Notes under the pieces: generated by a model
What the model was told of the DNA's origin: nothing
The model's database searches: none
Seen by the model: the letters and a program-made list of their open reading frames with translations, nothing else
NCBI GenBank assembly: GCA_963664745.2
Contig: CAXXMC010000003.1
Location: forward strand, 62,634-126,633
Direction of reading: 5' to 3'
DNA from: Phycisphaerae bacterium
Lineage (GTDB): Bacteria; Planctomycetota; Phycisphaerae; SM23-33
Length of the DNA: 64,000 nt
In this document: in pieces, positions 8,836-63,717 of the stretch
Position numbering within the stretch: position 1 is the stretch's first letter
How the letters are laid out: each line of letters opens with the position of its first letter
Translations under genes and position numbers: made by a program

Positions 8836-8996
8836 TAGAGCATATCAAACTTGATAGTTCCCTTTTTGCTGGCTTGCTTTGCCCTTGGCTGCTTCAGAAA
8901 CGTTGCGGAATATCTACAAATATGCCTTACGTTTCTTACTTGCCACGAACAAACCCGCTACGCAAAAATCGGAACTCTCAACTTTTCAATGCTTTA
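8836..8996. mobile_element. Fold-back MITE-like element, subfamily A (TAGAGCAT ends), conserved core on the minus strand
   Basis: 161 bp; close copies at 32759-32919 and 63556-63717; extra TAGAGC stubs at 8811 and 8995-9016. Confidence 0.85.
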
Positions 8997-9013
8997 GAGC
9001 ATATCAAAAGGCT

Positions 9014-9313
9014 CTACACGTCTTTTTCGTTATCATGGCTTGGGGGGTGGTTTTTTGTTGAATGGTCCTGTTTATTTTCAAGATAGGGATTTTCGGTATC
9101 GTCTTTATTGTTGGAGTCATCGTCTTCGAATTCTTTTTTGACGTCTTTAAGTTCGCTCTTGAAGGCCTTCAGGCCGCGTGCCAGACCTTTTGCCAGTTCG
9201 GGCAGTTTCTTGCCGCCGAATAGCAGAAGAACCACGATCAGGATAAGTACTACCTCCTGCGGGCCTACCGACCATGCCAACATTTCCGTCGTTGTGTTTA
9301 CGAGAGCTATCAT
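9014..9313 (-). CDS. tatA: Twin-arginine translocase subunit TatA
   Basis: [37 protein letters not shown]. Confidence 0.92.
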
Positions 9314-9719
9314 GTTTTAGTTCCAGACCCAGCCTGGCTGAGTGTTTTAGTCGAGATCGATTTTTATACAAATACGATAGTTCCTTTATTTTACTCGACC
9401 AAATGGACAAATTACATCAGAAAAGTCGGTTAAGTTCCCCTTAGTGCGTTCGTAAATGGATTTTTGGCCGGTTTTTGGAGACATTTTGGCTGAATGGCAC
9501 GAATTTGAAGATTTGCTGATCTTTTGGGCACAAAATTCTCTTGCGAGACGGTTGTAAAACAGTATCATCTACGGTTCGCGAATTAGCTGCGAGGCAGCCA
9601 TTTTTGTGTGTGAAAAGGTTGTCGATCTCAGAAACCAGTGGATTGCACATCAGTTTGGTGCGGTTCATAAAGTACACTTTTTGGCCTTATGGGCCTGTAT
9701 TTGCAGGAGAAATGGATCT

Positions 9720-11762
9720 ATGCCAGCATCAAAACCTTCGGATATTCGCAATATTGTACTTCTTGGTCATGGCGGAGCGGGCAAGACTTCCCTCGGGGAA
9801 GCGATGCTTTTTGCAAAAAAGGTGACCACCAGGTTAGGTTCCGTAACGGAAGGCTCGAGCATTCTCGATTTTACCGATATTGAGAAGGAGCGTCAGCATT
9901 CGGTGGACCCGGCTTTGGCATTTATCGAGCACGCAGGCAAGACGATAAACATTATCGACGCCCCAGGCTATCCTGATTTCATCGGTGGTGCGATAACGTC
10001 CATTGGCGGTGCTGATACCGCGGTGATTGTGATTTCAGCCACAGCTGGTATCGAGGTCAACACTCGCAGGTTGTACAAGGCTGCCAAGGCAGCTGGCCTG
10101 CCGATCGCCTTCGTTATTACCAAGATTCACGGCGAAAATATCGACCTCCAGGAACTCATGCATTCCATTCACGAAACGTTCGGTTCGAATTGTCAGGACA
10201 TGAATCTGCCCGCGAACGGCGGAAAGGTTGTAATTGACTGCTTCGCCAATACAGAAGGTGACAGTGACTGGGGAAGCGTTGCAAAGGCCCATGAGAAACT
10301 CATCGAGAGCGTCATAGAAGCCGACGAGGAAATGATGGAGGCCTACCTGAGCGGCGAGGAAATTCCCCCAGCCAAACTTGCCAACGCCTTCGGAGCGGCT
10401 ATGGTGGTGGGCACGATCGTGCCCGTATTCTTCACATCTGCCCGGGATAATGTGGGCATTACGGAGTTCATGGATTCCGTAGCCAAGTATTTCCCAGCTC
10501 CAGGTATGGTAGCTGGCACACCGGTCAAGAACGGCATCGGTGAGGATGCAGAGGAAATTACTCTTGAAGCTGATCCCGCCAAGCCTTTCGTAGGCCAGGC
10601 GTTTAAAATCACGACCGACCCGTTTGTCGGCAAGCTGGCGTGGATTCGTATTCTCCAGGGCACGGTCAAGGGCGAAACCGTCTATCATTTGAAGGACGAA
10701 AAGAAGACCGCGAAAGTCGGCCATCTGTTCAAGGTTCAGGGCGGCAGCACGGTTGAAACCCCCCAGGCCGTTGCCGGTGATATCATCGCACTGGCGAAGG
10801 TTGAGGAAATCGGAGCCGGCGACGTGTTACATGCCGACGCTACCCCGATGTTCCGGGATGTTCCCGCTACCCCAACCCCCATGTATTCATTGGCTGTTAC
10901 GCCGAAGAGTCGTGGCGATGAGCAGAAAATTTCCGAAGCTCTCCACCGGCTGACTTCCGAAGATCCGACCTTCGTCTCAAGCAGGGACACGCAAACGAAT
11001 GAAACCGTCATCAGCGGTATCGGCGATCTTCATCTGCGAATGATCCTGACGAAGATGAAGACCCGATTCAATATCGAAGTCGACACCAAGCCGCCGAAGA
11101 TTCCGTACAAGGAAACCATTCTGGACAAGGCTGAGGGTCATCACCGTCACAAAAAGCAGACCGGCGGCGCAGGCCAGTTCGGCGAGGTCTATCTCCGGGT
11201 GGAACCGCTAGAACGCGGAGCTGGCTTTGAGTTTGTGAATGACCTGTTTGGCGAGTCGATTCCCAGGCAGTATCTACCAGCTATCGAAAAGGGCATTCAC
11301 GATGTTCTTGGAGTTGGTGCCATCGCGGGCTATCCCATGCAGGACATCAAGGTCAGCGTTTACGACGGAAAACATCATCCGGTTGACTCGAAGGAAGTCG
11401 CTTTCCGGTCAGCTGGCAAGTTTGCGTTCATTGACGCCGTCCAAAAGGCCAAGCCGGCCCTGCTGGAACCTATCGTAGATATGGAAATTACGGTTCCCGC
11501 CAACTTTATGGGCGATATTACCAGTGACCTCGCCGGCAGGCGGGGCAGAATCCATGGCCAGGACATGATGCCGGGCAATATCGCCATCATAAAAGCCCAA
11601 GCCCCGCTGGCGGAAGTTATGCAATACAACAGCCAGCTTCGCAGCATAACGGGTGGCCAGGGCAGCTATGCAATGGAACTCAGCCATTACGAACCGGTTC
11701 CCAGCAACGTGCAACAGCAGATTGTTGCTGCCAGCGAGAAGGCCAAGGAAGAAGATAAGTAG
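9720..11762 (+). CDS. Elongation factor G-like GTPase (EF-G2-type paralog)
   Basis: GHGGAGKT, DAPGYPDF, KKQTGGAGQFG, YDGKHHPVDS, LLEPI; start moved to the ATG after the GGAG RBS. Confidence 0.9.
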   Translation: MPASKPSDIRNIVLLGHGGAGKTSLGEAMLFAKKVTTRLGSVTEGSSILDFTDIEKERQHSVDPALAFIEHAGKTINIIDAPGYPDFIGGAITSIGGADTAVIVISATAGIEVNTRRLYKAAKAAGLPIAFVITKIHGENIDLQELMHSIHETFGSNCQDMNLPANGGKVVIDCFANTEGDSDWGSVAKAHEKLIESVIEADEEMMEAYLSGEEIPPAKLANAFGAAMVVGTIVPVFFTSARDNVGITEFMDSVAKYFPAPGMVAGTPVKNGIGEDAEEITLEADPAKPFVGQAFKITTDPFVGKLAWIRILQGTVKGETVYHLKDEKKTAKVGHLFKVQGGSTVETPQAVAGDIIALAKVEEIGAGDVLHADATPMFRDVPATPTPMYSLAVTPKSRGDEQKISEALHRLTSEDPTFVSSRDTQTNETVISGIGDLHLRMILTKMKTRFNIEVDTKPPKIPYKETILDKAEGHHRHKKQTGGAGQFGEVYLRVEPLERGAGFEFVNDLFGESIPRQYLPAIEKGIHDVLGVGAIAGYPMQDIKVSVYDGKHHPVDSKEVAFRSAGKFAFIDAVQKAKPALLEPIVDMEITVPANFMGDITSDLAGRRGRIHGQDMMPGNIAIIKAQAPLAEVMQYNSQLRSITGGQGSYAMELSHYEPVPSNVQQQIVAASEKAKEEDK

Positions 11763-11769
11763 TCGAATT

Positions 11770-11936
11770 TAAGGGTACCTCTAATAATTGCTTTTGAGTT
11801 GAGAGTAGAAGATTTACTCAGCTGGCAAGGAACGTAAAACAGGGCATATTTGTCGATATTCTCTGTTTTGCGTGACGCAGTCCAGCTGGGGGAAGATTCG
11901 CTCTCAGCCAAAATTGAATTTTTAAAGGTGCCCTTA
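11770..11936. mobile_element. Fold-back MITE-like element, subfamily B (TAAGGGTACCTCTAA ends), conserved core
   Basis: 167 bp; imperfect TIR; core GCAAGGAAC..GCATA..TATTC..TGACGCAG at 11825-11880. Confidence 0.8.
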
Positions 11937-11957
11937 AATAAATTCGATAAAAAAAGC

Positions 11958-11985
11958 TTGCCAGAACCTTTTAAAACATTACAAT
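11958..11985 (+). promoter_or_regulatory. Candidate sigma70 promoter for rpmB
   Basis: TTGCCA-16-TACAAT. Confidence 0.5.
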
Positions 11986-12102
11986 ACCCGACTCGCTTTT
12001 TTTGAGAAGGCGTTAATTGTTATTTTATGAATCAGGCCGAGATTTTATGGTTTCGGCTGAATAGAAACAGATATGCCGGCCCAGGCCGGCTTGGAGCTAA
12101 AA

Positions 12103-12363
12103 ATGCCACGTGTATGTCCATTAACAGGAAGGCGTACCTCATCCGGTGGATCAATCAGCCGGCGCGGTAAAGCCAAACGTCTCGGCGGTGTAGGTAAAAA
12201 AATCACCGGACGAACGAAACGTATGTTCAAAGCCAACATCCAACGCGTTCGTGCTGTCGTAGACGGCGAGGTGGTTCGTATCAATGTCTCAGCCAAGGCG
12301 ATCAGGGGCGGTATGATTCAAAAACCCGTCAAACGTACCTGGAAGGCTGAAGTCGAAGCATAA
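12103..12363 (+). CDS. rpmB: 50S ribosomal protein L28
   Basis: MPRVCPLTG...GGVGKKITGRTKRMFKANIQ. Confidence 0.93.
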   Translation: MPRVCPLTGRRTSSGGSISRRGKAKRLGGVGKKITGRTKRMFKANIQRVRAVVDGEVVRINVSAKAIRGGMIQKPVKRTWKAEVEA

Positions 12364-12462
12364 CAGCTCCCGCGAGAAGGAATTACAGCTGAATAAATGT
12401 CAGAGCTGGCTGGCGGTTTTTGGGACAGCTTTGAACTGCTGAAATTTTTTCAAACAGATATT

Positions 12463-12499
12463 AAAAAATCCCGTCGATTCGTTCGATGGGATTTTTTTT
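12463..12499. terminator. Bidirectional intrinsic terminator between rpmB and rpiB
   Basis: AAAAAATCCCGTCGA-loop-TCGATGGGATTTTTT between convergent genes. Confidence 0.8.
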
Positions 12500-12609
12500 A
12501 TTTTATATGGGAGGCTTGTCGAGGCTGTGTAAAACCGTTGATTCCCAGAATAAGTCCTGTGAATTTTCCGGCATTCATGCAAAACCGGAAATACACGTCT
12601 GCCAGGCGA

Positions 12610-13080
12610 TTACTCTTCGTCAAGTGATGTCGGGTCTATGCCCTTTTCGATACAGCCTATTTTCTCGACCCTGCGAGCATGTCGGCCTGCCGATTCGAAT
12701 TCCGTCTTCAGCCAGGTCGTGACGATTCGCCGCATCAGTTCTTCGCCGAGCACATCGCTGGCCAGGCAGAGGACATTCGCGTTATTGTGCCTGCGGGAAA
12801 GCTCAGCTGTGAGTTCGTCATGGCAGAGAGCTGCCCGGACGCCTGGGACCTTATTGCCGCAGATGCTCATTCCTATTCCGCTGCCGCAGATCAGAATTCC
12901 CCGTTGGGCCTTTCCCTCAGCTACGCTCTTGGCTGCAGGGTATGCGGTATCGGGATAGTCGCAACTCTTGGTGCTGTCGGTTCCCATGTCGATGGTTTCA
13001 TGGCCCAGTTCACTCAGGAACAGGGCTACCCTGTTTTTAGCAGCGTGACCGCGATGGTCTGAAGCAATTGCGACTTTCAT
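12610..13080 (-). CDS. rpiB: Ribose-5-phosphate isomerase B
   Basis: ASDHRG, DYPD, ICGSGIGMSI, RRHNNANVL, GRHARRV. Confidence 0.95.
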   Translation of the reverse strand: MKVAIASDHRGHAAKNRVALFLSELGHETIDMGTDSTKSCDYPDTAYPAAKSVAEGKAQRGILICGSGIGMSICGNKVPGVRAALCHDELTAELSRRHNNANVLCLASDVLGEELMRRIVTTWLKTEFESAGRHARRVEKIGCIEKGIDPTSLDEE

Positions 13081-13156
13081 GTCTCGTACCTTTTCTTAAA
13101 GTAGCACATACAGAACCGGCGTTTACGCAACGCCAGTCAAAATTTCTCAAACAAAC

Positions 13157-14278
13157 CTACAGTACTCCTTGAGCGATTCTTTCCGTAAGCGCCCGTTCAA
13201 TGTGTTCTGCGGTTTCATCATACACATTGATATTGCCGCCTATCGGATCGGGTATATCCTGCTGCTCATCAAGCATACAGATAAGCGGCGAGGAACTCCC
13301 AGCCAATTGTTTCGTCTCTTCCAGATGAAACTTAGTCATACAGAATATCAGATCACAGGATTTAATCAACTCGGAGGTTAATTTTTTACTGCGATGTCGA
13401 GAAATATCTGCACTTTTTGCCGTGGCGGCGTGGATAGCTTCAGGCGTGGCTTTGCTGCCCGGGCCTGCGAAAAGACCTGCGGAGATCACATCCACTCCAT
13501 TTTCGTGTAACTCACTTGCCTGACAGCCCATACGTTCAGCTATGAGTTTTTTTGCAAGCCCAGCTGCCAGGGGGCTTCTACAGGTATTCCCCGTACAAAC
13601 GAAGGCGATTTTACGTTTCATACATTTCGTGAGCATTCTTTCGTCCCAAACTCCTTTTCTGACAAGTTCCCATTCATTGCCCCGGAATCTGACGATACTG
13701 CTGTTTTTGCTGAACTTGGCCTGGCCGCTGTCGATCAGCAGATCGATCTTGCCGTTGAGGGCATGGAGAACCTCATCGCCGGTATGCGGGGCAGGCTCGC
13801 CTGCCAGGTTTGCGCTGGGGGCTACGACTGGGCCCTTCACCTGGGCGAGCATGGCACGGGCGACGGGTTCGTCGGGGCATCGCAGGCCTATGACGTTATC
13901 GAGCGTCAGCTCATCGTGTAATTCATTGAGGGCTTTGGTGGGGAATTCTCCGCAGGTTTCCAGGAGCAGCGTCACCGGCCCAGGCCAGATGCGATCCATC
14001 AGCCATTTCGCCCGCAGGGGGATATCGGCGACATATTCCGCGACCTGTTCGGAATCTGAAATATGTACGCTGAACGGAGCTGCCGGGCGGGACTTGAGTT
14101 CGCGCAACCTGTCCATGGTGTCCTTGTTGGTTGCAAGGGCAGCTATGCCGTAAACGGTTTCCGTGGCAAAACCCACCAGTTTGCCGGCCTGGAGCGCAGC
14201 GGCGCCCTCCGCAGCTGCTTCTGCTACCGACGGCGAAGAGTCGCTTGCTTCACGGACTGTTATTACTCTTGTATTCAT
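13157..14278 (-). CDS. TsaC/Sua5 threonylcarbamoyl-AMP synthase fused to a YwlE-like low-MW phosphatase
   Basis: ATETVYG, KSRP, WPGPVTL, PSANLAG; then FVCTGNTCRS and IPDPIGG. Confidence 0.88.
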   Translation of the reverse strand: MNTRVITVREASDSSPSVAEAAAEGAAALQAGKLVGFATETVYGIAALATNKDTMDRLRELKSRPAAPFSVHISDSEQVAEYVADIPLRAKWLMDRIWPGPVTLLLETCGEFPTKALNELHDELTLDNVIGLRCPDEPVARAMLAQVKGPVVAPSANLAGEPAPHTGDEVLHALNGKIDLLIDSGQAKFSKNSSIVRFRGNEWELVRKGVWDERMLTKCMKRKIAFVCTGNTCRSPLAAGLAKKLIAERMGCQASELHENGVDVISAGLFAGPGSKATPEAIHAATAKSADISRHRSKKLTSELIKSCDLIFCMTKFHLEETKQLAGSSSPLICMLDEQQDIPDPIGGNINVYDETAEHIERALTERIAQGVL

Positions 14279-15612
14279 GCCTGTTGTCCATTGCCTGGTT
14301 TTTCTACTGCCTCACAGGCCTGGTTTATCGTGGCTACTTCAACCTGCTCGCCTGTCTGCATGTCGCGGATTACGATTGCTTCAGGGTCCATAATAGTCAC
14401 GAGTGTGGGGATATTTTTCCGTCCGGCGTATGAGAACTGTTTTTTAACCGCCCCCGTGCCGGAATACAGGTCGACATTATGACCTGCCTTGCGCAGCCTG
14501 GCAGCCAGCTGTTGAGCAGAGGCTTTTAGCTCCGGTTCGCGAAAACCGACGAAAACGTCCGACTCCGATTTGCGTTCGAGCTTGATCAGGCCTTTTTTGC
14601 ACGCGATGTCGAACAGGCGAGTCACGCCGATCGAGCCGCCCACGCCGGGCAGCTTGAGCTTGGAAAAAGTCGAGACAAGGTCGTCATACCTTCCGCCGCT
14701 GGCGATACTGCCGAAAGATTCATACCCGGTCAGAAAAGTCTCGAAAACCACGCCCGAATAGTAGTCCAGCCCACGCACAATGCCAGGCTGAAATGACAGA
14801 AATTCCTCAGGAATCCCCAGATTGACCAGCGATCGCCAGGTTTCTTTGAGTTCCTCGAAAAATAGCAAGGCCTCTTCGTCATTGCCAACTATTTCAGCGA
14901 AACCTTCGGGCTGACCCGAGTATTGGAAGAGAGCTAGGATGGATTCCGCAGTGGAGTCATCGCCTCCAAGGACTTCCGCCAGCTCTGCCTGCGTAGCCTT
15001 TTGACCTATCTTGGTAAGTTTGTCGATAACGCGGAGAACGTCAGCTGTCTTTTCGCCGGCCACGCCCATCCGGGCCAGGAGAGTCTTGGCCAGGCGTATG
15101 TGGTTGATGTTGATGGTGAACTCGCCGATATCAAGTCTGCCCAGTGCGTCATAGAGTACTGCTATACATTCCGCGTCGGCGTGAATGTCCAGACTGTCCT
15201 GGCCTACTATATCGATATCAGCCTGGAAAAATCCCTGGAACCGCCCAGCCTGTGCACGCTCGCCGCGGAAACTGTAACCCACGTCGTATCGTTTGTATGG
15301 GAAAACGAGTTCACCAGCCTTCATCGCCACCCAATGGGCCAGCGAAACCGTGCGGTCGAAAGGCAAGGCCATGTCCGTCGGGGCGTCTTCCTGAAGCCTG
15401 CTTACGCCGAAAATCTGTTTGGCGATTCCGCCCTGGGCAAGCAGGACTTCTCGCAGCTCGAGTGGACGCGGAATGAGATTTGAGAACCCGTATTGCCGGA
15501 AGGCTGAGACAATCACGTCAAGCCAGCCCGAGAGGGCAACGTTCTCGGCTTCTGAATAATCCGCAAAGCCGCTAATGGCTCGCGGTTTGGTAATTTTCCT
15601 GATCGTCGTCAT
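14275..15612 (-). CDS. hisS: Histidine--tRNA ligase (divergent)
   Basis: FRGERAQAGRF, RGLDYYSG, GGRYD, GGSIGVTRL, C-terminal anticodon domain. Confidence 0.85.
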   Translation of the reverse strand: MTTIRKITKPRAISGFADYSEAENVALSGWLDVIVSAFRQYGFSNLIPRPLELREVLLAQGGIAKQIFGVSRLQEDAPTDMALPFDRTVSLAHWVAMKAGELVFPYKRYDVGYSFRGERAQAGRFQGFFQADIDIVGQDSLDIHADAECIAVLYDALGRLDIGEFTININHIRLAKTLLARMGVAGEKTADVLRVIDKLTKIGQKATQAELAEVLGGDDSTAESILALFQYSGQPEGFAEIVGNDEEALLFFEELKETWRSLVNLGIPEEFLSFQPGIVRGLDYYSGVVFETFLTGYESFGSIASGGRYDDLVSTFSKLKLPGVGGSIGVTRLFDIACKKGLIKLERKSESDVFVGFREPELKASAQQLAARLRKAGHNVDLYSGTGAVKKQFSYAGRKNIPTLVTIMDPEAIVIRDMQTGEQVEVATINQACEAVEKPGNGQQA

Positions 15613-15828
15613 AATAAAAACTCCTAAGGCGGAAAGTATACGCTAGAAAATTGCTAATTTCCAATTTTCAATTTCCAATTTCCAAATCACAGAATACGAA
15701 TTGTACGGATTCTTTTAATTTTGAAGACGGCAAAAAAGCAATCTGCCTGATCTGCAAAATCTGTAGAATACCCTTGAGGCATTTACTTCAAACTTCCCTC
15801 GTTAATTGAAATGAGTTTCCCTCGTGGC

Positions 15829-16377
15829 CTAATTCTCAAACTCATCCACGAGCGTCTGCAGGGCCTTGCGATGTCCCATTTTTGAGACGGTTCCCATGCG
15901 GTCGACGAGCAGTTTGCCTTCCAGGTGATCGCTTTCATGCTGGCAGAGACGTGCGTGCAGGCCTTGACAGGTTTGAGTGAAGACCAGGCCGTCCAGGCCC
16001 GTTGCTTCGATGGTCACTTTAGCGTAACGTTTGATTTTGGAAAAAATACCGGGAAAACTCAGACAGCCTTCTTCGCAGACATCAGCGCCTTCCATCTCTA
16101 TGATCTTCGGATTGATGTAAACGTGCAGGTCTTCCCGCTCGAAGGTCGGGCTGCCGATGAAGAGTCTGACCGTAATGCCCACCTGAGGGGCAGCCAGACC
16201 TACGCCGTTGGATTCAAACATAAGATCAGCCATCTTTTCCACCAGTGCCCGGACCTTTTCGTCGACCGTGTCAACGGGCGTGCAAATTTCCATCAGCCTG
16301 GGGTCGGGATACCTGATGACCTTTAGAGTTTCGATATCAGCTGAGATAATTTTTTCGTTAGATTTCATACATATCAT
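15829..16377 (-). CDS. def: Peptide deformylase
   Basis: GVGLAAPQVG, EGCLS, QHESDHLEG. Confidence 0.96.
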   Translation of the reverse strand: MICMKSNEKIISADIETLKVIRYPDPRLMEICTPVDTVDEKVRALVEKMADLMFESNGVGLAAPQVGITVRLFIGSPTFEREDLHVYINPKIIEMEGADVCEEGCLSFPGIFSKIKRYAKVTIEATGLDGLVFTQTCQGLHARLCQHESDHLEGKLLVDRMGTVSKMGHRKALQTLVDEFEN

Positions 16378-16497
16378 AATAGCTGACCGGGGCTGGTTAA
16401 ATCAAGTATTGACCTTGCCATTGGCGAAGATTGACAAATATTCTTTTCATTTTCCGTCTTTTTTCCCTATAATATGACATAATATGCCGATGCATAT

Positions 16498-16662
16498 TAA
16501 CAGTCCGTTGAAAAAGTAGGCCGTCGCCGAGATCGAGAGATTTTTTGTTCTGACAAGGAAGAAAACCAAGGTATATTTTGCGATATTCCGCAGGTTTTTT
16601 GACGCGGTCAGGGCAAAAAAGATCCGCTCGCAGGCAGGCATTAGTTTTTCAACGGACTGTTA
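16498..16662. mobile_element. Fold-back MITE-like element, subfamily C (TAACAGTCCGTTGAAAAA ends), conserved core
   Basis: 165 bp; perfect 18-bp TIR; core ACAAGGAAG..GTATA..TATTC..TGACGCGG at 16553-16607. Confidence 0.85.
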
Positions 16663-16765
16663 AGTAATGACGGAACTTATGATCCGGGCCGTTGACGAAA
16701 AACGCCTCTGAACCTTGCGTGGTATTTTTGAGACGATTTTCGACACCGGCCTGTGTGGAGTTTTT

Positions 16766-17503: not shown

Positions 17504-17542
17504 TTGCTATCCATTATTGGAATTGATAAGAAATGTTAACTT

Positions 17543-17707: not shown

Positions 17708-17736
17708 CTTTATTTAACTGATAGGTATTATTTTAA

Positions 17737-18609: not shown

Positions 18610-18710
18610 AAAAAGCATTAGGCATTAGAGGCAAGGCGTTAGGCAATAGGCAAACACGAGAACACTGATTCCACGGATTAAAGCGGATTGCTCGGATGTT
18701 TTTTTGATTT

Positions 18711-22561: not shown

Positions 22562-22563
22562 TA

Positions 22564-32758: not shown

Positions 32759-32919
32759 TAAATCATTGAAAAGTTGAGAGTTCACAATTTTGTGGAGCGG
32801 GTTTGTTCGTGGCAAGGAAGAAACATCAAGCATAGTAAGTCCTATTCCGAAATGTTTCTGAAGCAGCCAAGGGTAAAGCAAGCCACCAAAAAGCGAACTC
32901 TCAAGGTTGAATTGCTCTA
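32759..32919. mobile_element. Fold-back MITE-like element, subfamily A, copy 2
   Basis: 161 bp; reverse complement of the 8836 copy; core at 32812-32866. Confidence 0.85.
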
Positions 32920-54848: not shown

Positions 54849-56663
54849 ATGAAATCTCTTGTGAAACGTAAATTTAAGACGTGTGTGATAGTTACGATGC
54901 TGTTGGGATTGACGCTGTTGTCTGTCTCGCCAGGCTGTACCAAAGACGAAGACGGCAAACTTGTCGTAAAGAAGAATATCTTCAAAAAAGAAGAAAAGCC
55001 CCGCAATAAAATTGTGATATCACCAGAAATCGCAGGCACGGTTGCTGAAGTCGCGCTTCTTGTCAGCGGGGGAGATGCGCCGATTACCGGTACGGGTATT
55101 GTTGTAGGTCTGGATACAAAAGGCTCATCGGAAGTGCCCGCCAGCGTGAAAAGCACTCTAACGAAGTATCTCGTCAACGAGATCAAACTCGGCAGGGCTT
55201 CTGAAGATATGCAGAATGTAACGCCCGATACATTTCTGGACGATCATGACACCGCTGTAGTTCGGGTCGATGCGATAATTCCGCCCGGAGCCCCCGAAGG
55301 GACCTTGATCGACGTTGCCGTCTCAGCCTTGCCCCGTACGCAAACGACCAGCCTGGAAGGCGGCATGCTGCTGCCCACGAAAATGCACTGGGAGGCAGGG
55401 AAGACATCAGAGAACAAGTATCTCAAATCCCTGGGCGTCGCTGAGGGGACTGTGTTCGTTAATCCTTTCCTGGATCCTACAAAACCGTCCGACACTCCGC
55501 GTTATCGTGAAGGCGTAGTCCTCAACGGCGCTGAGGTAGTCGAGGATATGCCGATTCGCCTTGAGCTTCGCAAGCCCAATTATCACACGTGTCAGATACT
55601 GGAAAAAAGAATCAATGAGCGTTTTTCTGTACCTGGCAAAAAGATTGCCACCGCAAAAAACCGCTATAACATTGAAATCAAAATTCCGCCGGAATATGTA
55701 GGGAATTACCAATATTTTCTCAAGCTCCTCCTGCACCTGCCGCGGGCCAGCGGTCCATCAGCCTATGAGACCCAGGCAAAACGCATAGCCCGGGCCATGA
55801 TGCAGCCTGATGCCAACCACGATGGATTGGCTTTGGTATGGGAGGCAATGGGAAAGAGCATTCTCCCGACTGTACAGAAAGTTTACTCATCCACCAATCC
55901 CACAGCTGCGTTTTTTGCAGCCCGGGCAGGGTTAAGGCTAAATGACACGTACCTGGCAGCTCCGATCATACTGGCAGCTGCGAAAAAGGCTGGGGCACCG
56001 CAGCAACTTCTTGCTATACAAGAGCTTGGCTATCATCCTGACGTTCGTCAGGCAGGCCCGGTACTTCGGGAACTGCTCAATGACTCCAATGAGCTTGTCC
56101 GCATTCATGCGTACGAGGCTTTATTGCGAAGGGGAGACAACGCAGCTGTGACCCGACACGACGTAGACGGCGAATTTCTCGTGGATATAGTGAAATCAAC
56201 CGGGCAACACGTTGTTTACGCAACCAGAAGCGGCAAGCCTAAGATCGTGCTTTTCGGGGATATTGTGCCCATTGCAAACCCCGTTTTTTATTCCACTTCT
56301 GACAATAATGTGACCATTTTCAGCAAAAAAGGCGATCCAAAAGCAGAGAATCCGGAAGATCAGAAGGATCATCTGGTGGTCTACCGAAAACTGCCCCGCA
56401 GGGAAAGAACGAGCAAAAAATTTACTGTTGAGTTCAACACCTGGCCTATGATAAAGGTTCTTGGCTCTCCGCCAAGACCAAGCCAGGCCACATGGAAAAT
56501 CCAGGGCCTGGGCCTGACATACAGCCAGGTGGTGGGCATTCTCTGCCAAATGTGTAAACAAAATTTAATTGAGGCAAAATTCGTCTTGCAACAGCCTACC
56601 GAATTGCAGAGAATCTATCGCCATACCCCTACTATGGGTAGACCTGACAGGCCAGACCGCTAG
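54849..56663 (+). CDS. FlgI (P-ring)-like lipoprotein with HEAT repeats
   Basis: GTGIVVGL..KGS, TAVVRV.A.IPPGA, SLEGG.L; HEAT-like LRELLND..ELVRIHAYEAL. Confidence 0.75.
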   Translation: MKSLVKRKFKTCVIVTMLLGLTLLSVSPGCTKDEDGKLVVKKNIFKKEEKPRNKIVISPEIAGTVAEVALLVSGGDAPITGTGIVVGLDTKGSSEVPASVKSTLTKYLVNEIKLGRASEDMQNVTPDTFLDDHDTAVVRVDAIIPPGAPEGTLIDVAVSALPRTQTTSLEGGMLLPTKMHWEAGKTSENKYLKSLGVAEGTVFVNPFLDPTKPSDTPRYREGVVLNGAEVVEDMPIRLELRKPNYHTCQILEKRINERFSVPGKKIATAKNRYNIEIKIPPEYVGNYQYFLKLLLHLPRASGPSAYETQAKRIARAMMQPDANHDGLALVWEAMGKSILPTVQKVYSSTNPTAAFFAARAGLRLNDTYLAAPIILAAAKKAGAPQQLLAIQELGYHPDVRQAGPVLRELLNDSNELVRIHAYEALLRRGDNAAVTRHDVDGEFLVDIVKSTGQHVVYATRSGKPKIVLFGDIVPIANPVFYSTSDNNVTIFSKKGDPKAENPEDQKDHLVVYRKLPRRERTSKKFTVEFNTWPMIKVLGSPPRPSQATWKIQGLGLTYSQVVGILCQMCKQNLIEAKFVLQQPTELQRIYRHTPTMGRPDRPDR

Positions 56664-56763
56664 ATATTGTGGTTTATGGCTTGCAGGCAACGAGTTATCA
56701 TTGTATAACTATGTGAACTGTAAGCCGGCAGGGTCAGGAGATGCCGGTGAGGAAATAATCGGC

Positions 56764-59700
56764 ATGAAATTAAGAAAACTTATCGTATCTGGCTTTAAGA
56801 GCTTCGCGGACAAGACGGAGTTTGAATTCGATGATGGCATCAGTTGCGTGGTCGGCCCGAACGGGTGCGGCAAGAGCAACGTTGTAGACGCTATTAAATG
56901 GGTTCTCGGCGAACAGTCAGCCAAGAGTCTTCGCGGCACTGAAATGATGGACGTTATCTTCAACGGCTCAGTTGCCCGTAGGCCCAGTGGCCAGGCTTCC
57001 GTAACGCTTCAATTCGAAGGCTGTGCGGGCCAGCTTCAGCCTGTGGTCAACGGCGAGGTCCAGGCCTCGGATTCCGTGTCGATTACCCGTCGACTTTTCC
57101 GTTCAGGCCAAAGCGAATATCTCATCAATAAACAGCCTGCCCGTCTGCGCGATATCAAGGAAATGTTCCTGGACACCGGTCTTGGTGCCAATGCGTACAG
57201 TATCATCGAGCAGGGTCGGGTCAGCCAGTTTCTCCAGGCGTCGCAGGAAGAGCGTCGCGCGTTTTTTGACGAGGCAGCCGGTATCAGCAGGTACAAACGT
57301 CGCAAAAAAGAAGCTGCCAGCAAACTCGGGCGGGTTGAGCAGAATCTGCTCAGACTTCAGGACATTCTCTCCGAGGTCGAGAAGCGATTACGGTCGATCA
57401 AGATCCAGGCCGGCAAGGCGAGGAACTATCAGACTTATGCTGAAAGTCTCCGCGAGCTTCGCGGCATTTATTTCCTCAGCCAGTATCACCTGATGAAGCT
57501 CACCAGGCAGGAACAGCAGGGCGGGTTGGACGTCAGCACGGACAGGCTTGCATCCATCACATCTCGAATTGGTCAACTGGAGTCGTCCCAGGCAGCTGCC
57601 CAGGCAGAAGCAGCCGAGCTGGAACAGGCCTCGCGTCAACTCCAGGCCAAGCTCTCCACGCTGTCGGCACAGATTACGACCCTGCAGGAACGGGCGGATA
57701 TGCAGGCCAATCGCGTTGAGGAGCTTTCCGAAGCCATTCTGATGAACGTATCGCGTTGCGAAGAGCTAGAAGCCAAGATAGACGACTGCGCCAAAGACGC
57801 AGCTGCCCGTGAAGTGGAAATCGCACAGGTTCTTAGCGCGGTCGAAGAACTTCAGCAGCAGAGCCAGGCCGTTGCGGAGTCTTACGCAGCTGGGGAAATG
57901 ACGATAACGGAACTTAAAATCCAGCTCGATGAAGAGAAGGCCGGCGTGGTCGACCTGCTCCGCCGGACTACTCAGCTGCACAATGACGTCCATGCAATCG
58001 GGATGCGTCGTCAGAGTCTGGAGGGCGACAAGGTTCGACTCACAGGCCGGGCCGAGGAAGTGGCCGAAGACCTCAAAGCCTTGCTCATTGAGCACGCGCA
58101 GGTCGCTGCCAAGCGAAAAGATTCCGAAGAAATCATCAATGAAGCCCAGGCCAAGCTCGAAGAAGTGCAAGGCGTTGCGGAAAAACTCTCCACCACCGAG
58201 CAGGAGCTTGTAGCCAAGCTTTCCGCTGATCGGGAACAGCGTTCGACCCTGGCAGGCCGGGCCCATTCGCTGCAAGAGATGCAGCAACGGCTAGAGGGCG
58301 TTGCAGAGGGCACAAAACGTGTTCTGAATGCATGTCGGGAAGGTCGGCTGCCCGTAATTCACGGCATGTTGGGCGATTATCTGGAAACCGATATTGAACA
58401 CGCACCGCTCGTGGAAGCTGCACTCTCTGGAGCTGACCAGCGTTTGCTTGGCGCTCATTTCAGCGAGGTACACGCAGCTGCAGCTGAACTGGAAGAAGTA
58501 CTGGGCCAGGGCGGTAGTGTCGAAGTGATTTGCCTGGATCGCGTCGGTGCCTTGCCGGAAGAAGATGTTTCGATTGCCTGTCCGCAGTCGATTGGAAGGG
58601 TGCTGGACTGGGTGAGGTTCGAGCCTTGGCTGGAGCCTTTGATGTGGCATTTACTGGGACATACCCTGCTTGTCCGCGATCTTGACGCCGCAGCGTTGGC
58701 TGCGCGGGTAACGCCAGAGGGTTATCGCTTCGTTACGCTGGCTGGGGAGGTATTCGAAGCTGACGGCAGGATTAGATTGGGCGCCGCAAATCAGGCTCCG
58801 GGCGTTATCGCACGCGGCAGTGAGCTTGCCGAGCTTCAGCAGCAGATAGCTGTCCTGGATGAGCAGATCGAAAACCTTCAGCTGCAAAGCACAGAGACCC
58901 GAACCGAACGGGAAAATCTTGAGCATCAGCTTGAGACCCTCCGCAAAGCCATCTACGAAGCTAATTTTGAACGTGGCGAGTGCGACAAACAGCTCGCCGG
59001 GCTTGATTCGCGAATCGATCAACGCAAACGCGAAGAGCCTTTGCTACATCAGAATATTTCCAGCATTGAAGCTGAAATTGACGCAGCTATTCAGAAAGAA
59101 CACGAAACGAAAGAGAAGGCTGCGGATCTGGAATACCGCAAAGTCCAGCACGATGAAACGCTGGCCTTGCTTGAGGAGCAGCTTGATGTCGCCCGAACGG
59201 GCCAGGACGAACTCAACGAACAGCGAACCGCGTTGAAGGTCGCCCTTGCTTCACAGGAGCAGAAGGCTCTTGCTCTCCGCGAGACAATCGCTACCCTTAC
59301 CCGTCAGCGAGGCGAGATGGAAGAGGCCCGCGCCAAAGCGCAGGCAGATATCGAACTGGATAAGGATCGACGCACTGCTGCCCAGAACGAAATCGAAAAA
59401 TCCCGTACGCAGGTCGAACAGCTCTATGCCGACAAGCAGGCGCTGGATGTCGAATTCCAGGACATTGAAGAGAGTCGCACAGGCCTTGCTGAGATGCTCG
59501 ATACGATCCGGACGCAAATGACGGAAAAGCGTCGCGAAGCTGAGCAGGCCAACGAAGAGGTCGGAAACCTGCGAGTCAAACTGAGCGAAATAGATGCGCA
59601 TATCGGCGATATGATTAACCGGGCTGCGGACGAGATGCACATGAATCTCACCGAGCTGCACAAAACCTATGAGCATGACGATGACAGGGATTGGGAAGCC

Positions 59701-60375
59701 CTTGAACTGGAAATGAACGATCTCCGCGGCAAGATCGACAGGCTCGGCAATGTAAATCTCGATGCGATAGGTGAACAGGAAGAACTGGAGCAGCGACATG
59801 AATATCTTGGCGCACAGATGCAGGATATTGTCGAGTCGCAGAAGCAGCTTGAGGAACTTATTCGCAAACTCAATAAGGAGTGTCGTGACAGATTTGTCGA
59901 GACGTTTGCACAGGTTCGCGAAAACTTCCAGTCGCTGTTCCGCAAGTTATTTGGCGGTGGCAAGGCTGACGTGCTGCTTACCGATCCTGAAGACGTGCTG
60001 GAAAGCGGCATCGAAATCGTGGCCCGGCCTCCCGGCAAGGAGCTTCGCTCTATCAGCCTGCTCTCCGGCGGTGAGAAAACCATGGCTGCCCTGGCGATGA
60101 TCTTCAGCTTCTTCCAGGCCAAGCCCTCGCCGTTCTGCCTGCTGGACGAAGTGGACGCTGCACTCGACGAAGCCAACAACGAACGTTACAACGCGATCGT
60201 TCAGGAATTCACCGATACCCAGTTTATCATGATCTCGCACAGTAAGCGAACCATGGCTATCGCCAAGGTACTCTACGGCGTGACGATGCAGGAACTGGGC
60301 GTCTCGAAACGTATCAGCGTCAAGTTCGAAGAGGCTGACCAACTCGACGAAACCCTTCAGCCGGTAATGGCCTAG
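56764..60375 (+). CDS. smc: Chromosome segregation protein SMC
   Basis: GFKSF, GPNGCGKSN, hinge, LSGGEK, LLDEVDAALD. Confidence 0.97.
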   Translation: MKLRKLIVSGFKSFADKTEFEFDDGISCVVGPNGCGKSNVVDAIKWVLGEQSAKSLRGTEMMDVIFNGSVARRPSGQASVTLQFEGCAGQLQPVVNGEVQASDSVSITRRLFRSGQSEYLINKQPARLRDIKEMFLDTGLGANAYSIIEQGRVSQFLQASQEERRAFFDEAAGISRYKRRKKEAASKLGRVEQNLLRLQDILSEVEKRLRSIKIQAGKARNYQTYAESLRELRGIYFLSQYHLMKLTRQEQQGGLDVSTDRLASITSRIGQLESSQAAAQAEAAELEQASRQLQAKLSTLSAQITTLQERADMQANRVEELSEAILMNVSRCEELEAKIDDCAKDAAAREVEIAQVLSAVEELQQQSQAVAESYAAGEMTITELKIQLDEEKAGVVDLLRRTTQLHNDVHAIGMRRQSLEGDKVRLTGRAEEVAEDLKALLIEHAQVAAKRKDSEEIINEAQAKLEEVQGVAEKLSTTEQELVAKLSADREQRSTLAGRAHSLQEMQQRLEGVAEGTKRVLNACREGRLPVIHGMLGDYLETDIEHAPLVEAALSGADQRLLGAHFSEVHAAAAELEEVLGQGGSVEVICLDRVGALPEEDVSIACPQSIGRVLDWVRFEPWLEPLMWHLLGHTLLVRDLDAAALAARVTPEGYRFVTLAGEVFEADGRIRLGAANQAPGVIARGSELAELQQQIAVLDEQIENLQLQSTETRTERENLEHQLETLRKAIYEANFERGECDKQLAGLDSRIDQRKREEPLLHQNISSIEAEIDAAIQKEHETKEKAADLEYRKVQHDETLALLEEQLDVARTGQDELNEQRTALKVALASQEQKALALRETIATLTRQRGEMEEARAKAQADIELDKDRRTAAQNEIEKSRTQVEQLYADKQALDVEFQDIEESRTGLAEMLDTIRTQMTEKRREAEQANEEVGNLRVKLSEIDAHIGDMINRAADEMHMNLTELHKTYEHDDDRDWEALELEMNDLRGKIDRLGNVNLDAIGEQEELEQRHEYLGAQMQDIVESQKQLEELIRKLNKECRDRFVETFAQVRENFQSLFRKLFGGGKADVLLTDPEDVLESGIEIVARPPGKELRSISLLSGGEKTMAALAMIFSFFQAKPSPFCLLDEVDAALDEANNERYNAIVQEFTDTQFIMISHSKRTMAIAKVLYGVTMQELGVSKRISVKFEEADQLDETLQPVMA

Positions 60376-60539
60376 TACTTCGTTTTAGGAATAAGGTCGG
60401 ATAGATGCGCCGCGCCGGTGAGGCAGATGCAAGGAAGAAAAAGACTGCATATTTGAAGATATTCCGTCGTTTTTCTGACGCAGCAGATGCCTTATCGCCG
60501 CAAGCAGGTATCCGGCATTATTCCTGAAATGGAGTACTA
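60373..60539. mobile_element. Fold-back MITE-like element, subfamily D (TAGTACTTCGTTTTAGGAATAA ends), conserved core
   Basis: 167 bp; starts on the smc TAG stop; core at 60429-60483. Confidence 0.85.
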
Positions 60540-60632
60540 GCGAAGGGGCCATTCTTTATGTCACAGATGAAGAAGATTTTTGGATAAAACAGCGGGCTAC
60601 AGAGGCACAGAGGACACAGAGTTTCTTTATTG

Positions 60633-60709
60633 TGTCATTGCGAGAGTAGCGAAGCAATCTCGATTTTTGAATTTTAGATTGCCGCGTCGCCATGCTCCTC
60701 GCAATGACA
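60633..60709. repeat. GTCATTGCGAG REP-like palindrome, copy 3
   Basis: Same arms as the 6321 and 20692 copies. Confidence 0.85.
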
Positions 60710-60778
60710 AATCATGGCTACCCTGCAAACAATGCAGTGTTGCCATGCCACTCGCCAGAAAGAATATGATTCCCTCGT

Positions 60779-60862
60779 GTAATCCCAGCGAAAGCTGGAT
60801 TCCAGAGGAAATTCCCGTATCGTCCATACATCCACTAGATTCCGGGTCAAGCCCGAAATGAC
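60779..60862. repeat. Degenerate GTCA-type REP-like palindrome
   Basis: GTAATCCCAGCGAAAGCTGG..TCCAG / CTAGATTCCGGGTCAAGCCCGAAATGAC. Confidence 0.6.
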
Positions 60863-61073
60863 TAGCGCAATTAACGTTTAATCTGCAACATGCCTTCTGG
60901 TTGCGGCTTCGCCCGGTGGCGTCCGGTTCCATCGACAATGTAATCATATTTTCTGCTTCACTGTCCTGGCTGGGCTTGTCCTCACCAACGAATCCACGTT
61001 GCATCTTAATCGTTAGCGGCTCTAAACAAACCGAACGGGGTGAGACCCCAGCCAATGAAATGTCTGCAGCTGG

Positions 61074-61805
61074 TTACTCTTTTCTTGCCAAGCCATACTT
61101 GAAGATGCAACGAATGGCTTGCAGACCGTCGCGCCAGCCAATTTTTTTGCCCTCTTCATGCTTGCGAGGATCGTAAGAGATCGGAAGTTCCAGAATTTTC
61201 ACGCCGCGCTTGGCCAGCTTGGCTGTGACTTCCGGCTCGAAGCCGAAACGGTTCTGCTGAAGGGGGATGGCTTGGATGATTTCCCGGCGGAAGACTTTGT
61301 AGCAGGTTTCCATGTCGGTCAGGCCATGGCCTGTCGTGAGATTGCTCAAACCCGTCAGGAAACGGTTGGCGAGATAATTTTTCAGGTATCCCTTCCTGCT
61401 GCGCTGGGCGAGGAATCTGCTGCCGTAGACGACGTCTGCTTTGCCTGCTGCTATCGGGGCCAGCAGGGCGGGGTAGTCTTTGGGGTCATATTCCAGGTCG
61501 GCGTCCTGAATTATAACTACGTCGCCGGTCGCAGCTGCGAAGCCAGTCCGCAGACCAGCGCCTTTGCCCTGGTTCTGCTCGTGGAAGATTACCTGGAAAT
61601 CAGTCCCAGCTGGTGTATTGTCTGGCGGATTATCTTTGAATTGCCGCAATTGATCCCGCGTGCCGTCGGTAGAGCCGTCATCGACGAGAATGATCTCCCG
61701 AGTCCAGCTGGGCAGGTCTACCTCCAGAACTCTTGCAAGCAGGTCTTTCCATGTGTTCAACTCGTTATAAACCGGTATGACAATTGATAGTTTCATATTA
61801 GTCAT
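61074..61805 (-). CDS. GT2 family glycosyltransferase (DPM-synthase-like)
   Basis: [30 protein letters not shown]. Confidence 0.92.
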
Positions 61806-61858
61806 TAGTTTTTAGGCACTAGGCATTAGTTATTGGTTTTCAATATTTCGACACGTCT

Positions 61859-62836
61859 TTACACAGCTGGGGTGTTGTTAGTCGGTGGTCTGTATCTGGA
61901 CATATCCAGTTTTTTGAAGTACTCGATAGTCTTGGCCAGGCCTTCTCTTACGGGGACTTTCGGTTCCCAGTCCAGCTTTTCTTTTGCTAATGTAATATCA
62001 GGTCGACGTTGTGTCGGGTCGTCAGCCGGCAGGGGTTTGTAGACCAGCTTGGACTTTGAGCCGGTCAGTTCGATGATGATCTGGGCCAGTTGCTTGATCG
62101 AATATTCTTCGGGGTTGCCCAGGTTGACAGGGCCATGGAAATTTTCGGTATTGTTCATCATTCCGACCATTCCGCGGATAAGGTCTTCGACATAGCAGAA
62201 AGACCGCGTCTGCGAACCGTCGCCATATATGGTAATATCCTGATTATTCAAGGCCTGGAGAATGAAATTACTTACGACCCTGCCGTCGTATGGATGCTGC
62301 CCCGGCCCATAGGTGTTAAATATCCTGACGACGCGGATATTTACGCGATGCATACGATGGTAGTCGAAGAAGAGAGTTTCGGCACATCGTTTGCCTTCGT
62401 CGTAGCAGGCGCGAGGCCCGATGGTATTGACTTGGCCTCGATAGCTCTCAGGCTGGGGTGATATATCAGGGTCGCCATAGACTTCGCTGGTGGAGGCTTG
62501 GAGGATTTTTGCCTTTGTCCGATTGGCCATGCCTAGCATGTTCATTGCGCCTGCGATGGAAGTCTGCAGTGTTTGGATGGGGTTGAATTGGTAGTGTATT
62601 GGCGAGGCAGGGCAGGCGAGGTTGTATATTTCGTCTACTTCCAGCATAACCGGTTGCGTTATGTCATGTCGGATCAGTTCGAAGTTGTGATAGTCCAGCA
62701 GATGATCAATGTCGCGCTTTTGGCTGGTGAAGAAGTTGTCCATGCAAATAACGTCATGGTCTTCGTCGAGGAGTTTTTTGCACAGATGTGCCCCCAGTAG
62801 CCCAGCTCCGCCGGTCACAAGTATTCGTTTCAACAT
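61859..62836 (-). CDS. UDP-glucuronic acid decarboxylase (UDP-xylose synthase)
   Basis: [47 protein letters not shown]. Confidence 0.93.
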
Positions 62837-63020
62837 TTTTTGGCCTCTGACAAAAGGATTCCAGGAAACAGAAAAGGAATAGTCTGCATTTCTGCCAAAC
62901 TTTTGCAACTTTTTTATTATTGGCTTTGGCGACAGATATTGCTCCATGGGCAATTTTCCCGGGAATTTTATCGAAAAAGCTTTCTGTTTGCCAGATTTCT
63001 CTTTTGAATTATCTAGGCGC

Positions 63021-63052
63021 AAAAAAAAGGGCCAGTCCTTTCCAACTGGCCC
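63021..63052 (-). terminator. Intrinsic terminator
   Basis: GGGCCAGT-TGGAAAGG-ACTGGCCC followed by T8 on the minus strand. Confidence 0.8.
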
Positions 63053-63288
63053 ATAGTCACAGTTTGGCAGCCTGCACACACAGTCTGCCCAAGATTGTTC
63101 AATCGTTCGCGTTAAGGCACACAAGGCCGGGAGGGCTGTGCGCAAAGTTCAAGGGCCCTTTTTGGGATGCTGGCTGAGCGATTTGATTCAAAAAGTTCAT
63201 GATAAAAACCTTTACAAAAAACTTACATTTTCGGACAAAACTAGGCTGTGCGAACCGCATCTGGTCCTGTCAGCCTGAATTCGGAAAA

Positions 63289-63471
63289 TCAATTGGTGTC
63301 GATCTGGGGTTCTTCCGCGCAAACGCTGGTAATGGTGTGCCCGGAAGGACAGCTGCCTTTGCTATGTTCCAGATCGAACTTGATCATGGCTTCCGACGGA
63401 CTGTGGGCTTCGACTGATTCAGTCTCTTGCCTGTCCATCCCAGCGAGTATGTATCTAACTCTGAAAACCAT
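63289..63471 (-). CDS. Small hypothetical protein
   Basis: GAGG RBS before MVFRVRYILAG...EAHSPSEAMIKF. Confidence 0.55.
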   Translation of the reverse strand: MVFRVRYILAGMDRQETESVEAHSPSEAMIKFDLEHSKGSCPSGHTITSVCAEEPQIDTN

Positions 63472-63555
63472 AGTTGCCTCACATACAGCCCATTGTGTCC
63501 AGCCGGCTGAAAACTCCCGGAGTTCTTCATTCCGCATGGACAAGACCAGTGCGAT

Positions 63556-63717
63556 TAGAGCATATCAAACTTGTATAGTTCCGTTTTGGCTGGCTTGCTT
63601 TGCCCTTGGCTGCGTCAGAAACATTGCGGAATAGAACGAACTATGCCTTATGTTTCTTTCTTGTCACGAACAAACCCGCTACGCAAAAATTGGAACTCTC
63701 AACTTTTCAATGCTCTA
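63556..63717. mobile_element. Fold-back MITE-like element, subfamily A, copy 3
   Basis: 162 bp; same orientation as the 8836 copy; TAGAGCAT/ATGCTCTA ends. Confidence 0.85.

Follow-up and report, generated by a model that had tools for sequence, protein, structure and literature searches.

Probable IS630/Tc1-mariner-type miniature elements with different termini share one covarying, strand-polar core in a Phycisphaerae genome

The DNA described here is a stretch of 64,000 nt (hereafter, the window) from a Phycisphaerae bacterium (assembly GCA_963664745.2, contig CAXXMC010000003.1), which corresponds to C3:62634-126633 of the genome that we designate G000 (4.65 Mb, 6 contigs). Six fold-back elements lie in the window. 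An initial annotation, made from the sequence alone, described them as 161-167 nt long, starting with TA(A/G), ending with (C/T)TA and able to form rods, and a check in the sequence bore out these features and the positions. The elements are very probably TA-flanked, non-coding miniature transposable elements with inverted repeats (MITEs) of the IS630/Tc1-mariner type. They carry one core module, a covarying structure that folds much better on one strand than on the other, and their termini differ from subfamily to subfamily. The six elements are as follows.

8836-8996 (161 nt), minus strand: element 1, probable MITE of subfamily A, termini TAGAGCAT...; core of model R1 at 8879-8954
11770-11936 (167 nt), plus strand: element 2, probable MITE of subfamily D, termini TAAGGGTACC...; core at 11814-11890
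16498-16662 (165 nt), plus strand: element 3, probable MITE of subfamily C, termini TAACAGTCCG...; core at 16542-16617
32759-32919 (161 nt), plus strand: element 4, probable MITE, diverged member of subfamily A, TAAATCATTGAAAAG...; core at 32801-32876, apical ATAG/CTAT variant
60373-60539 (167 nt), plus strand: element 5, probable MITE of subfamily B, termini TAGTACTTCG...; core at 60418-60493
63556-63717 (162 nt), minus strand: element 6, probable MITE of subfamily A; core at 63600-63675

The covariance model R1, of the kind proposed in the initial annotation, was built from 26 diverse cores; a scan of the window with this model gave six matches, which are exactly the six elements, and nothing extra. 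Elements 1, 4 and 6 all belong to subfamily A, and the window therefore represents four subfamilies: A, B, C and D. According to a plain list of open reading frames (ORFs), all six elements are intergenic; element 2 begins 8 nt past the stop codon of an EF-G-like ORF (9606-11762), and the first three bases of element 5, TAG, are the stop codon of the ORF at 56569-60375. The edges of element 1 can also be recognized in contigs from public sequencing runs of the same organism: these stop or depart from the window sequence precisely at 8835/8836 and 8997. In short-read assemblies of Sedimentisphaerales genomes, elements of this family cause breaks that fall precisely on the element ends. Directly after element 1, at 8997-9016, there is a ~20-nt fragment, gagcatatcaaaaggctcta, that resembles a solitary A-type end. 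Elsewhere in the genome, copies are found end to end, A beside A at C4:2034260 and A beside B at C5:493460/493623.

The core is a module of 52-54 nt that is common to all subfamilies and is centred ~55 nt from either end of the element. It consists of helix P1, an internal loop AAGGAA / UGAMGCNG (loop letters AAGGAA / TGACGCAG), helix P2 and, at the apex, helix P3 (GGCAUA/UAUUCC), in which a C-U mismatch is conserved; the loop letters are conserved while the stems covary. For 26 representative cores, RNAalifold predicted 18 base pairs, 11 of which have compensatory changes. The duplex energy of a helix strand with its own partner, compared to that with a foreign partner, was -7.80 vs -3.51 kcal/mol for P2 and -9.27 vs -5.06 kcal/mol for P1. 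In an alignment of 42 cores (A2) that was fitted to model R1 and leans towards structure, 78.4% of the cells were paired, compared to 66.5 +/- 0.9 in shuffled alignments (0/500 shuffles reached the observed value), and the covariation score was 0.308 vs 0.136 shuffled (0/500); slid controls were 35-51% paired. The apical pair is UA in 26 of these cores, CG in 12 and GC in 4, and is never broken. The claim of a covarying structure holds in the RNAalifold analysis, in the partner swaps and in the shuffles of the 42 cores.

The core does not correspond to any of the known motifs that we considered. The search of Rfam suggested in the initial annotation was carried out with Rfam 15 and returned 0 matches at the gathering score for the whole window, i.e., no curated family matches it; with E-values up to 10, element 5 had chance-level matches only, the best of them (E = 0.56; 18 bits, with a cut-off of 44) to a C/D-box snoRNA model. 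A kink-turn, considered from the C/D-box likeness (GCAAGGA.GAAAAAGA...CUGA), was rejected by hand, because the helix that follows the GA pairs misfits the canonical layout. The core motifs of hammerhead and hairpin ribozymes are missing by eye, and neither ribozyme had an Rfam match. A small conserved peptide was rejected because the reading frames across the core, read directly, differ between subfamilies, for example between A and B, owing to indels. Among the titles and abstracts listed from the literature, a thin sample for IS630 together with these taxa, no description of these elements was met.

The two strands of the elements differ in folding energy. With the strand that reads CAAGGAA...TGACGC defined as sense, the difference in RNA minimum free energy between sense and antisense had a mean of -15.9 kcal/mol, and the sense strand was the stabler RNA for 85 of the 86 unique elements and for 25 of the 26 representatives. 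For example, element 5 folds as RNA into a rod of -85.7 kcal/mol in the sense orientation (z = -10.9 vs 200 shuffles), compared to -59.4 (z = -6.9) in the antisense orientation, whereas with DNA parameters the values are -36.5 (z = -6.7) and -31.2 (z = -5.9). A strand-symmetric comparison of the left arm with the reverse-complemented right arm yielded 113 G.T vs 70 A.C combinations (p = 0.0018). When it was restricted to the outer arms, which are unalignable, the counts were 79 and 36 (p = 7.5e-5), and an arm-versus-arm alignment yielded 217 A.G vs 60 C.T. A control MITE family from the same genome, R2 (11 oriented copies), showed no asymmetry (-122.0 vs -122.7). Since the asymmetry is present here, absent in R2 and, for element 5, small with DNA parameters, the polarity is a property of the family studied here and shows most clearly in the energetics of RNA. 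The initial annotation had suggested recognition as a single-stranded DNA or RNA structure, and the much better folding of one strand fits a single-stranded (RNA-like) form. From the modelled energies, we tentatively suggest that the core may have a strand-specific, single-strand (RNA-like) role; such a role is possible, although we would stop short of calling it probable.

The termini were originally described as unrelated. They do differ between subfamilies, but a direct reading revealed a layout that all of them have in common, namely TA-R, then 5-9 nt, then a subterminal word similar to (T/C)(T/C)GAAAA(A/G). Within a subfamily, termini of 20-30 nt are retained from genus to genus, which is what ordinary transposition with recognition of terminal inverted repeats predicts; for example, A-type termini are kept in G020 and D-type termini in G022, G108 and G109. 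Among seven subfamilies of G000, the identity was 0.79 in the core and 0.55 and 0.58 in the 55-nt arms, with 0.52 +/- 0.05 for shuffled sequence; between subfamilies, the identity of the arms is indistinguishable from that of shuffled sequence. The claim that these elements reverse the usual pattern of MITEs is therefore correct for comparisons between subfamilies, in which the cores are alike and the arms are not, and incorrect within a subfamily, in which the termini are conserved across genera. In well-bounded elements, including those of other phyla, the core lies 54-57 nt from the left end and 54-60 nt from the right end; this distance is narrow across subfamilies, as had been noticed, but not fixed. 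In family A (26 copies), the core diverges by 0.053 per site and the two arms by 0.055 and 0.058. Inserted copies thus decay evenly, and the constraint on the core appears to act on the sequence that is being amplified and not on each inserted copy. There are also mini-derivatives that consist of the two termini alone (44-76 nt), without the core; one is located in G000 at C1:126566-126609, and others are in G109 at C1:2543488-2543563, 3871961-3872036 and 4335576-4335651.

In the whole G000 genome, nhmmer with a hidden Markov model (HMM) of the 58-nt core (E <= 1e-3) detected 67 core copies. Classified by their ends, these are ~30 copies of A, ~25 of B and B' together, 2 of C, 2 of D, the singletons E and F, and truncated copies; thus, at least seven terminus subfamilies surround one core. 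The elements are 160-169 nt in size, non-coding and multi-copy, and the copy number differs between related genomes. A strict pattern, CAAGGAA-N9-14-YATA-N8-TATTC-N9-14-TGAMGC, had 38 matches in G000, 16 in G022, 3 in G020 and none in the remaining 38/41 relatives; the reversed control pattern had 0 matches everywhere, in G000 and relatives alike. A free-standing family of non-coding RNA genes, which was the other proposal of the initial annotation, does not agree with the TA and terminal inverted repeat (TIR) ends, the range of 0-38 copies among relatives and the presence of one copy inside another repeat, and is not supported.

The taxonomic scan covered one genome per prokaryote species and returned at least 96 stretches, so that the spread found is a lower bound. 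Most of the matches listed are in metagenome-assembled genomes (MAGs) labelled Sedimentisphaerales, Phycisphaerae or Planctomycetota. Also among the matches listed are multi-copy cores in the Bacillota MAGs OH_HBB_203, OH_CDB_62 and OH_SFB_220, cores on two contigs of the Clostridia MAG RGIG3058, and single core matches in one Clostridiales MAG and one Miltoncostaeaceae MAG; ~10 further listed matches are isolated ones in coding sequence of unrelated taxa, which fits the chance number estimated by hand. Hence, among the matches listed, the core module is found in Planctomycetota, Bacillota and Actinomycetota. In the other phyla, the core is likewise in the middle of a fold-back of ~160-166 nt, and the ends are different; L082, from the Clostridia MAG, has no evident terminal repeat. 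Viral contigs contained 0 matches to the core pattern.

The G000 genome has 12 matches to DDE_3 (PF13358), the transposase domain of the IS630 family, of which 7 are identical and intact. The resident IS630-family insertion sequence (IS) is 1,234 bp long, as delimited by aligning six copies, and has 7 intact copies, all outside the window. The initial annotation found no cognate enzyme in the window, and this remains correct: the DDE_3 matches of contig C3 are at 217733-218433, outside C3:62634-126633. A representative copy is given below.

G000:C5:111482-112715 (L122:850-2083): example copy of the resident IS; 6 further identical copies

The left end of this IS is TAGTACTCTGTCCC... (TAGTACTCTGTCCCTAGAATAAAG...), and its right end is ...GGGACAGAGTACTA (...CGGGACAGAGTACTA). 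The ends of the B' MITEs are the same as the IS ends over 14 nt. Over the first 40 nt, the identity to the IS left end is 27-28/40 for B' and 23-25/40 for B, and both MITE arms are closer to the IS left end (28/40) than to the right end (23-24/40). The combination of B/B' with the resident IS is the situation of RUP and IS630-Spn1, and we therefore file the family under IS630/Tc1-mariner-type MITEs. Because the B/B' termini are those of the resident IS, cleavage measured from the core is not needed. This changes one part of the mechanism first proposed, a non-autonomous element recognized as a folded structure and cleaved at TA at a fixed distance from the core: the non-autonomous, mobile nature of the elements and the fold of one strand are retained, whereas the cleavage mechanism gives way, as the ends of B/B' match an IS630 element with a DDE transposase.

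Of 99 genomes from the order, 27 contained IS630 relatives with the same type of terminus. The transposase of the resident IS is encoded in two reading frames, whose overlap lies at an A8 run (~nt 521-530), which suggests putative programmed frameshifting or transcriptional slippage. The 5' untranslated region (UTR) of this IS has a hairpin (GCCGAT..GGTTGATAGAACC..CGGC) just 5' of the Shine-Dalgarno sequence; this hairpin is conserved in relatives from other genera. A second type of IS630 transposase gene is degraded and is found in two copies (G000:C5:85100-86170 and C2:566000-566620), one of which is truncated by a D-type MITE fragment. The right end of this second type, ...GTGCTCTA (...AAAGTGCTCTA), is similar to the A-type terminus over just 7-8 nt and is a weak lead. 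Among 96 loci listed from core-bearing genomes, tblastn found no IS630-like ORF that could be an A-type partner. In G109, in which an autonomous partner of the D type was looked for, kb-spaced pairs of termini contain housekeeping genes, namely those for TruD, PrsW, OMP decarboxylase and HIT.

Ends of the form TA...TA with at least 8/12 terminal inverted-repeat matches were present in 38 of the 67 copies in G000, and most of these are 161 or 168 nt long. A different repeat family is interrupted by one A copy, and ~15 uninterrupted paralogues of that family align across the reconstructed junction. Contigs of the public runs X1 and X3 confirmed the identity of the window and the boundaries of the repeats. 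The elements of G000 favour convergent gaps between genes (23/67 vs 631/3,896 genome-wide), and in co-directional gaps 28 are oriented with the genes and 11 opposite to them (p = 0.009); GC skew, which is weak, is unlinked to the strand of the element. Approximately 15 of the 67 copies lie directly at, or overlap with, the stop codon of an ORF upstream, and their own terminal TAG or TAA serves as the stop or regenerates it; this is expected if TA within stop codons is a tolerated target. In this way, the elements provide stop codons to neighbouring genes.

Other repeats are abundant in G000. The R2 family is a second TA-flanked family of MITEs (TIR TAGTCGTCCCTGAAAAAG, ~325 nt, 18 terminus pairs) without the shared core, and it occurs outside the window (e.g., C2 ~565,450-565,800 and C1 ~158,100-158,450). 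It hosts one inserted A copy, and it truncates A copies at C5:238072 and C5:374409. These two half-core loci were considered as ends of a larger element and rejected, as they are A copies truncated by the other repeat in a 1.09-kb duplicated stretch. The genome is also rich in IS: a ~930-bp segment is present ~30 times and a ~1,505-bp element ~20 times; the copies are 99-100% identical, frequently lie within one another and have ORFs of 282 and 448 aa, respectively (e.g., C2:121243-122171 and C4:2631-4136). These IS-like repeats were rejected as partners of the MITEs, their ends being unrelated. A tandem array with a period of ~42 nt lies beside an IS cluster at G000:C5:237015-237243, and related arrays are at C5:439169-439245 and C2:622245-622347.

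As a whole, these results are, on balance, probably best explained by a superfamily of IS630/Tc1-mariner-type MITEs with one strand-polar core. In such a scheme, the resident IS630 transposase would cut and paste the B/B' copies in trans at TA dinucleotides, and the other subfamilies would be moved, now or formerly, by related transposases. The core would act as a fold of one strand, most likely in RNA that arises from read-through or from element-borne transcription; the folded core would promote the spread or the tolerance of the element and would not position cleavage.

It should be noted that a number of observations weigh against this explanation. For termini of the A, C and D types, the searches yielded no IS, which leaves a cognate transposase for B/B' only. 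Among nine core-bearing genomes examined, DDE_3 was found in G000 (7 intact copies), G108 and G110 and not in the other six (G109, G020, G022, G111, G112 and G113). G109 is a 4.6-Mb record titled 'chromosome: 1' that has 84 D-type terminus matches. MITEs can outlive their partner transposases, and MAGs are often without assembled insertion sequences. The junction reconstructed from the paralogues of the interrupted repeat reads ..AAAATAAG.. and is compatible with TA but inexact, because the paralogues (84-91% identical) vary at that place; contigs of four public runs (X1, X3, X4 and X5) contained no empty site. The orientation bias of G000 was not replicated, with counts of 6 vs 2 in G109 and 1 vs 6 in G108, although these are small numbers based on crude ORF calls, and the gap preferences of both genomes differ from those of G000. 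As to the structure, the columns CAAGGAA, YATA, TATTC and TGAMGC in alignments A1 and A2 are invariant partly because of the search pattern, the representatives are related by descent, so that counts over them overstate independence, and P2 is weakly paired (~-2.5 kcal/mol) in the Bacillota/Clostridia members L035, L077 and L082.

The position of the core could also mean that it is a double-stranded DNA architectural site (a bend, a cruciform or a protein-binding site), which brings the two ends together for IS630 synapsis. Such a site would account for the centred position and for arm lengths of 54-57 and 54-60 nt despite unalignable arm sequences, as well as for a constraint on the amplified sequence and not on inserted copies. 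A cruciform is physically possible, because both strands form rods with similar energies under DNA parameters (-36.5 and -31.2). A DNA motif is listed for some Correia elements, and IHF sites are listed in bacterial repeat elements, in the overview of such repeats (PMC2229807). We nevertheless consider a DNA site unlikely: it predicts no strand asymmetry, whereas G.T exceeds A.C, A.G exceeds C.T, and one strand is favoured with RNA parameters in 85/86 elements, an asymmetry in folding that is absent from R2. In addition, a plain duplex binding site does not predict covariation of the stems; by eye, no IHF-like consensus is conserved, and the apical loop, in which such a site could be located, is variable. 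The narrow distance between the core and the ends across subfamilies and phyla, the conserved loop letters, the covarying stems and the single favoured strand would suit a folded single DNA strand that is recognized by an HUH or other nuclease and cut at TA at a measured distance from the core, the termini being incidental; the 6/9 core-bearing genomes in which no DDE_3 gene was found point in the same direction. We regard this as highly improbable, however, given that the B/B' ends are the ends of the resident IS630 DDE element, that termini of 20-30 nt conserved per subfamily across genera would be unexplained if they were incidental, and that the distance varies by 3-6 nt, so that there is no strict ruler. 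Moreover, the presence of TIRs and TA flanks runs contrary to the features of HUH/single-strand transposons, the clustered copies in G109 enclose the housekeeping genes mentioned above, and neither cores nor half-cores were found to flank any gene, with no search aimed at HUH genes.

The similarity between the B/B' MITEs and the resident IS raises another question, namely, whether the core is a functionless relic of the parental IS (the 5' UTR Shine-Dalgarno AAGGAGG plus C-terminal codons), formed by one ancient internal deletion and kept through descent or through gene conversion. When the sequences are compared by eye, ...GCCGATAGGGTTGATAG...CGGCAAGGAGG...ATG in the left end of the IS stands at nearly the same offset as ...GCCGATGAGGTAGATGCAAGGAAG in B', and the left part of the core, GCAAGGAAG, looks similar to the IS sequence around the Shine-Dalgarno site (CGGCAAGGAGG...ATG). 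A B variant has an ATG mini-frame (..RRFSDAADA..) similar to the C-terminal WRFTTADAR of the transposase at a similar distance from the end, and the greater similarity of both MITE arms to the IS left end (28 vs 23-24 of 40) would also be consistent with this origin. However, in comparisons to the whole IS, 18/200 shuffles were as good in the best case, there was no significant similarity beyond the termini, and the core HMM had no matches on the IS copies; in positional shuffle tests, 153, 776, 192 and 505 of 1000 shuffles were as good. Because these tests failed, we treat the IS origin of the core as a lead only. A neutral relic would also not stay 79% identical with arms at background, covary, or persist in three phyla, and we consider a relic improbable.

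The preferred explanation, IS630/Tc1-mariner-type MITEs with one strand-polar core, can be extended to a more specific proposal, which in our opinion is somewhat unlikely to hold in full. The core might be a small structured RNA or single-strand domain that IS630-type MITEs carry, in the form of a rod that has a 'central conserved region'. It would be needed in cis for amplification, would have been kept while the termini were repeatedly re-matched to different transposases, and would have moved between Planctomycetota, Bacillota and Actinomycetota. Recruitment of the transposase or of a conserved host factor would be an example of such a role in cis. If the proposal is true, a non-coding functional module would be older and more conserved than the ends by which its DNA transposon family is defined. 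MITEs are usually defined by their ends, with the interior regarded as filler, whereas in the present family it is the interior that is conserved. A core that acts in cis on mobility would represent a new kind of determinant for IS630/Tc1-mariner elements, which are widely used genetic tools, and a core that acts as RNA would be a widespread structured RNA motif absent from Rfam.

Several families of bacterial repeats are close enough to be compared, and in its workings the present element is like the RUP, ERIC and Correia types of MITE. In the overview cited above, RUP (repeat unit of pneumococcus) is described as a ~107-bp non-coding, multi-copy element with TIRs like those of the IS630 family and insertion at TA, and is thought to be mobilized in trans (PMC2229807). 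The B/B' MITEs are related to the resident IS630 element in the way that RUP is to IS630-Spn1. Unlike RUP, which is one family in one species, the elements described here comprise at least seven terminus subfamilies, occur in several phyla and have a covarying, strand-polar centre. The same overview presents ERIC/IRU of enterobacteria as imperfect palindromes of ~127 bp with a terminal TA, which are co-transcribed with adjacent genes, form hairpins in RNA and affect the stability of mRNA in a manner that depends on their orientation (PMC2229807). We saw no sequence relation to ERIC, which is conserved over its full length in one bacterial family, whereas here the centre alone is common. A conserved central inverted repeat in ERIC was reportedly described by Hulton et al. 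in 1991.

The DNA motif of some Correia elements is an IHF site. Correia/NEMIS elements of Neisseria are summarized in the overview as 107-155 bp long and TA-flanked, with TIRs, long stem-loops in transcripts and, in some of them, a DNA motif (PMC2229807). Their termini are conserved and their interior varies by a 50-bp indel, unlike the elements studied here, in which, read by eye, no IHF-like consensus is conserved. Rickettsia palindromic elements, to which the initial annotation had loosely compared the window elements, are listed as palindromes of similar size with doubtful target-site duplication, located inside ORFs (PMC2229807, Table 1). The likeness extends to the palindromic form and the size; judged by that tabulated description, the location sets the two apart, as the elements reported here are intergenic or abut stop codons. 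In palindrome-associated elements of the IS200/IS605 type and in REP/RAYT, imperfect single-stranded DNA hairpins with conserved unpaired bases are recognized by HUH Y1 transposases. Single-strand transposons of the IS200/IS605 type are not known to have TIRs or target duplications. The present elements differ from both systems in having TIRs, TA flanks and an IS630 partner. What is new relative to known MITEs is a covarying, strand-polar centre that is common to lineages with different ends, across phyla.

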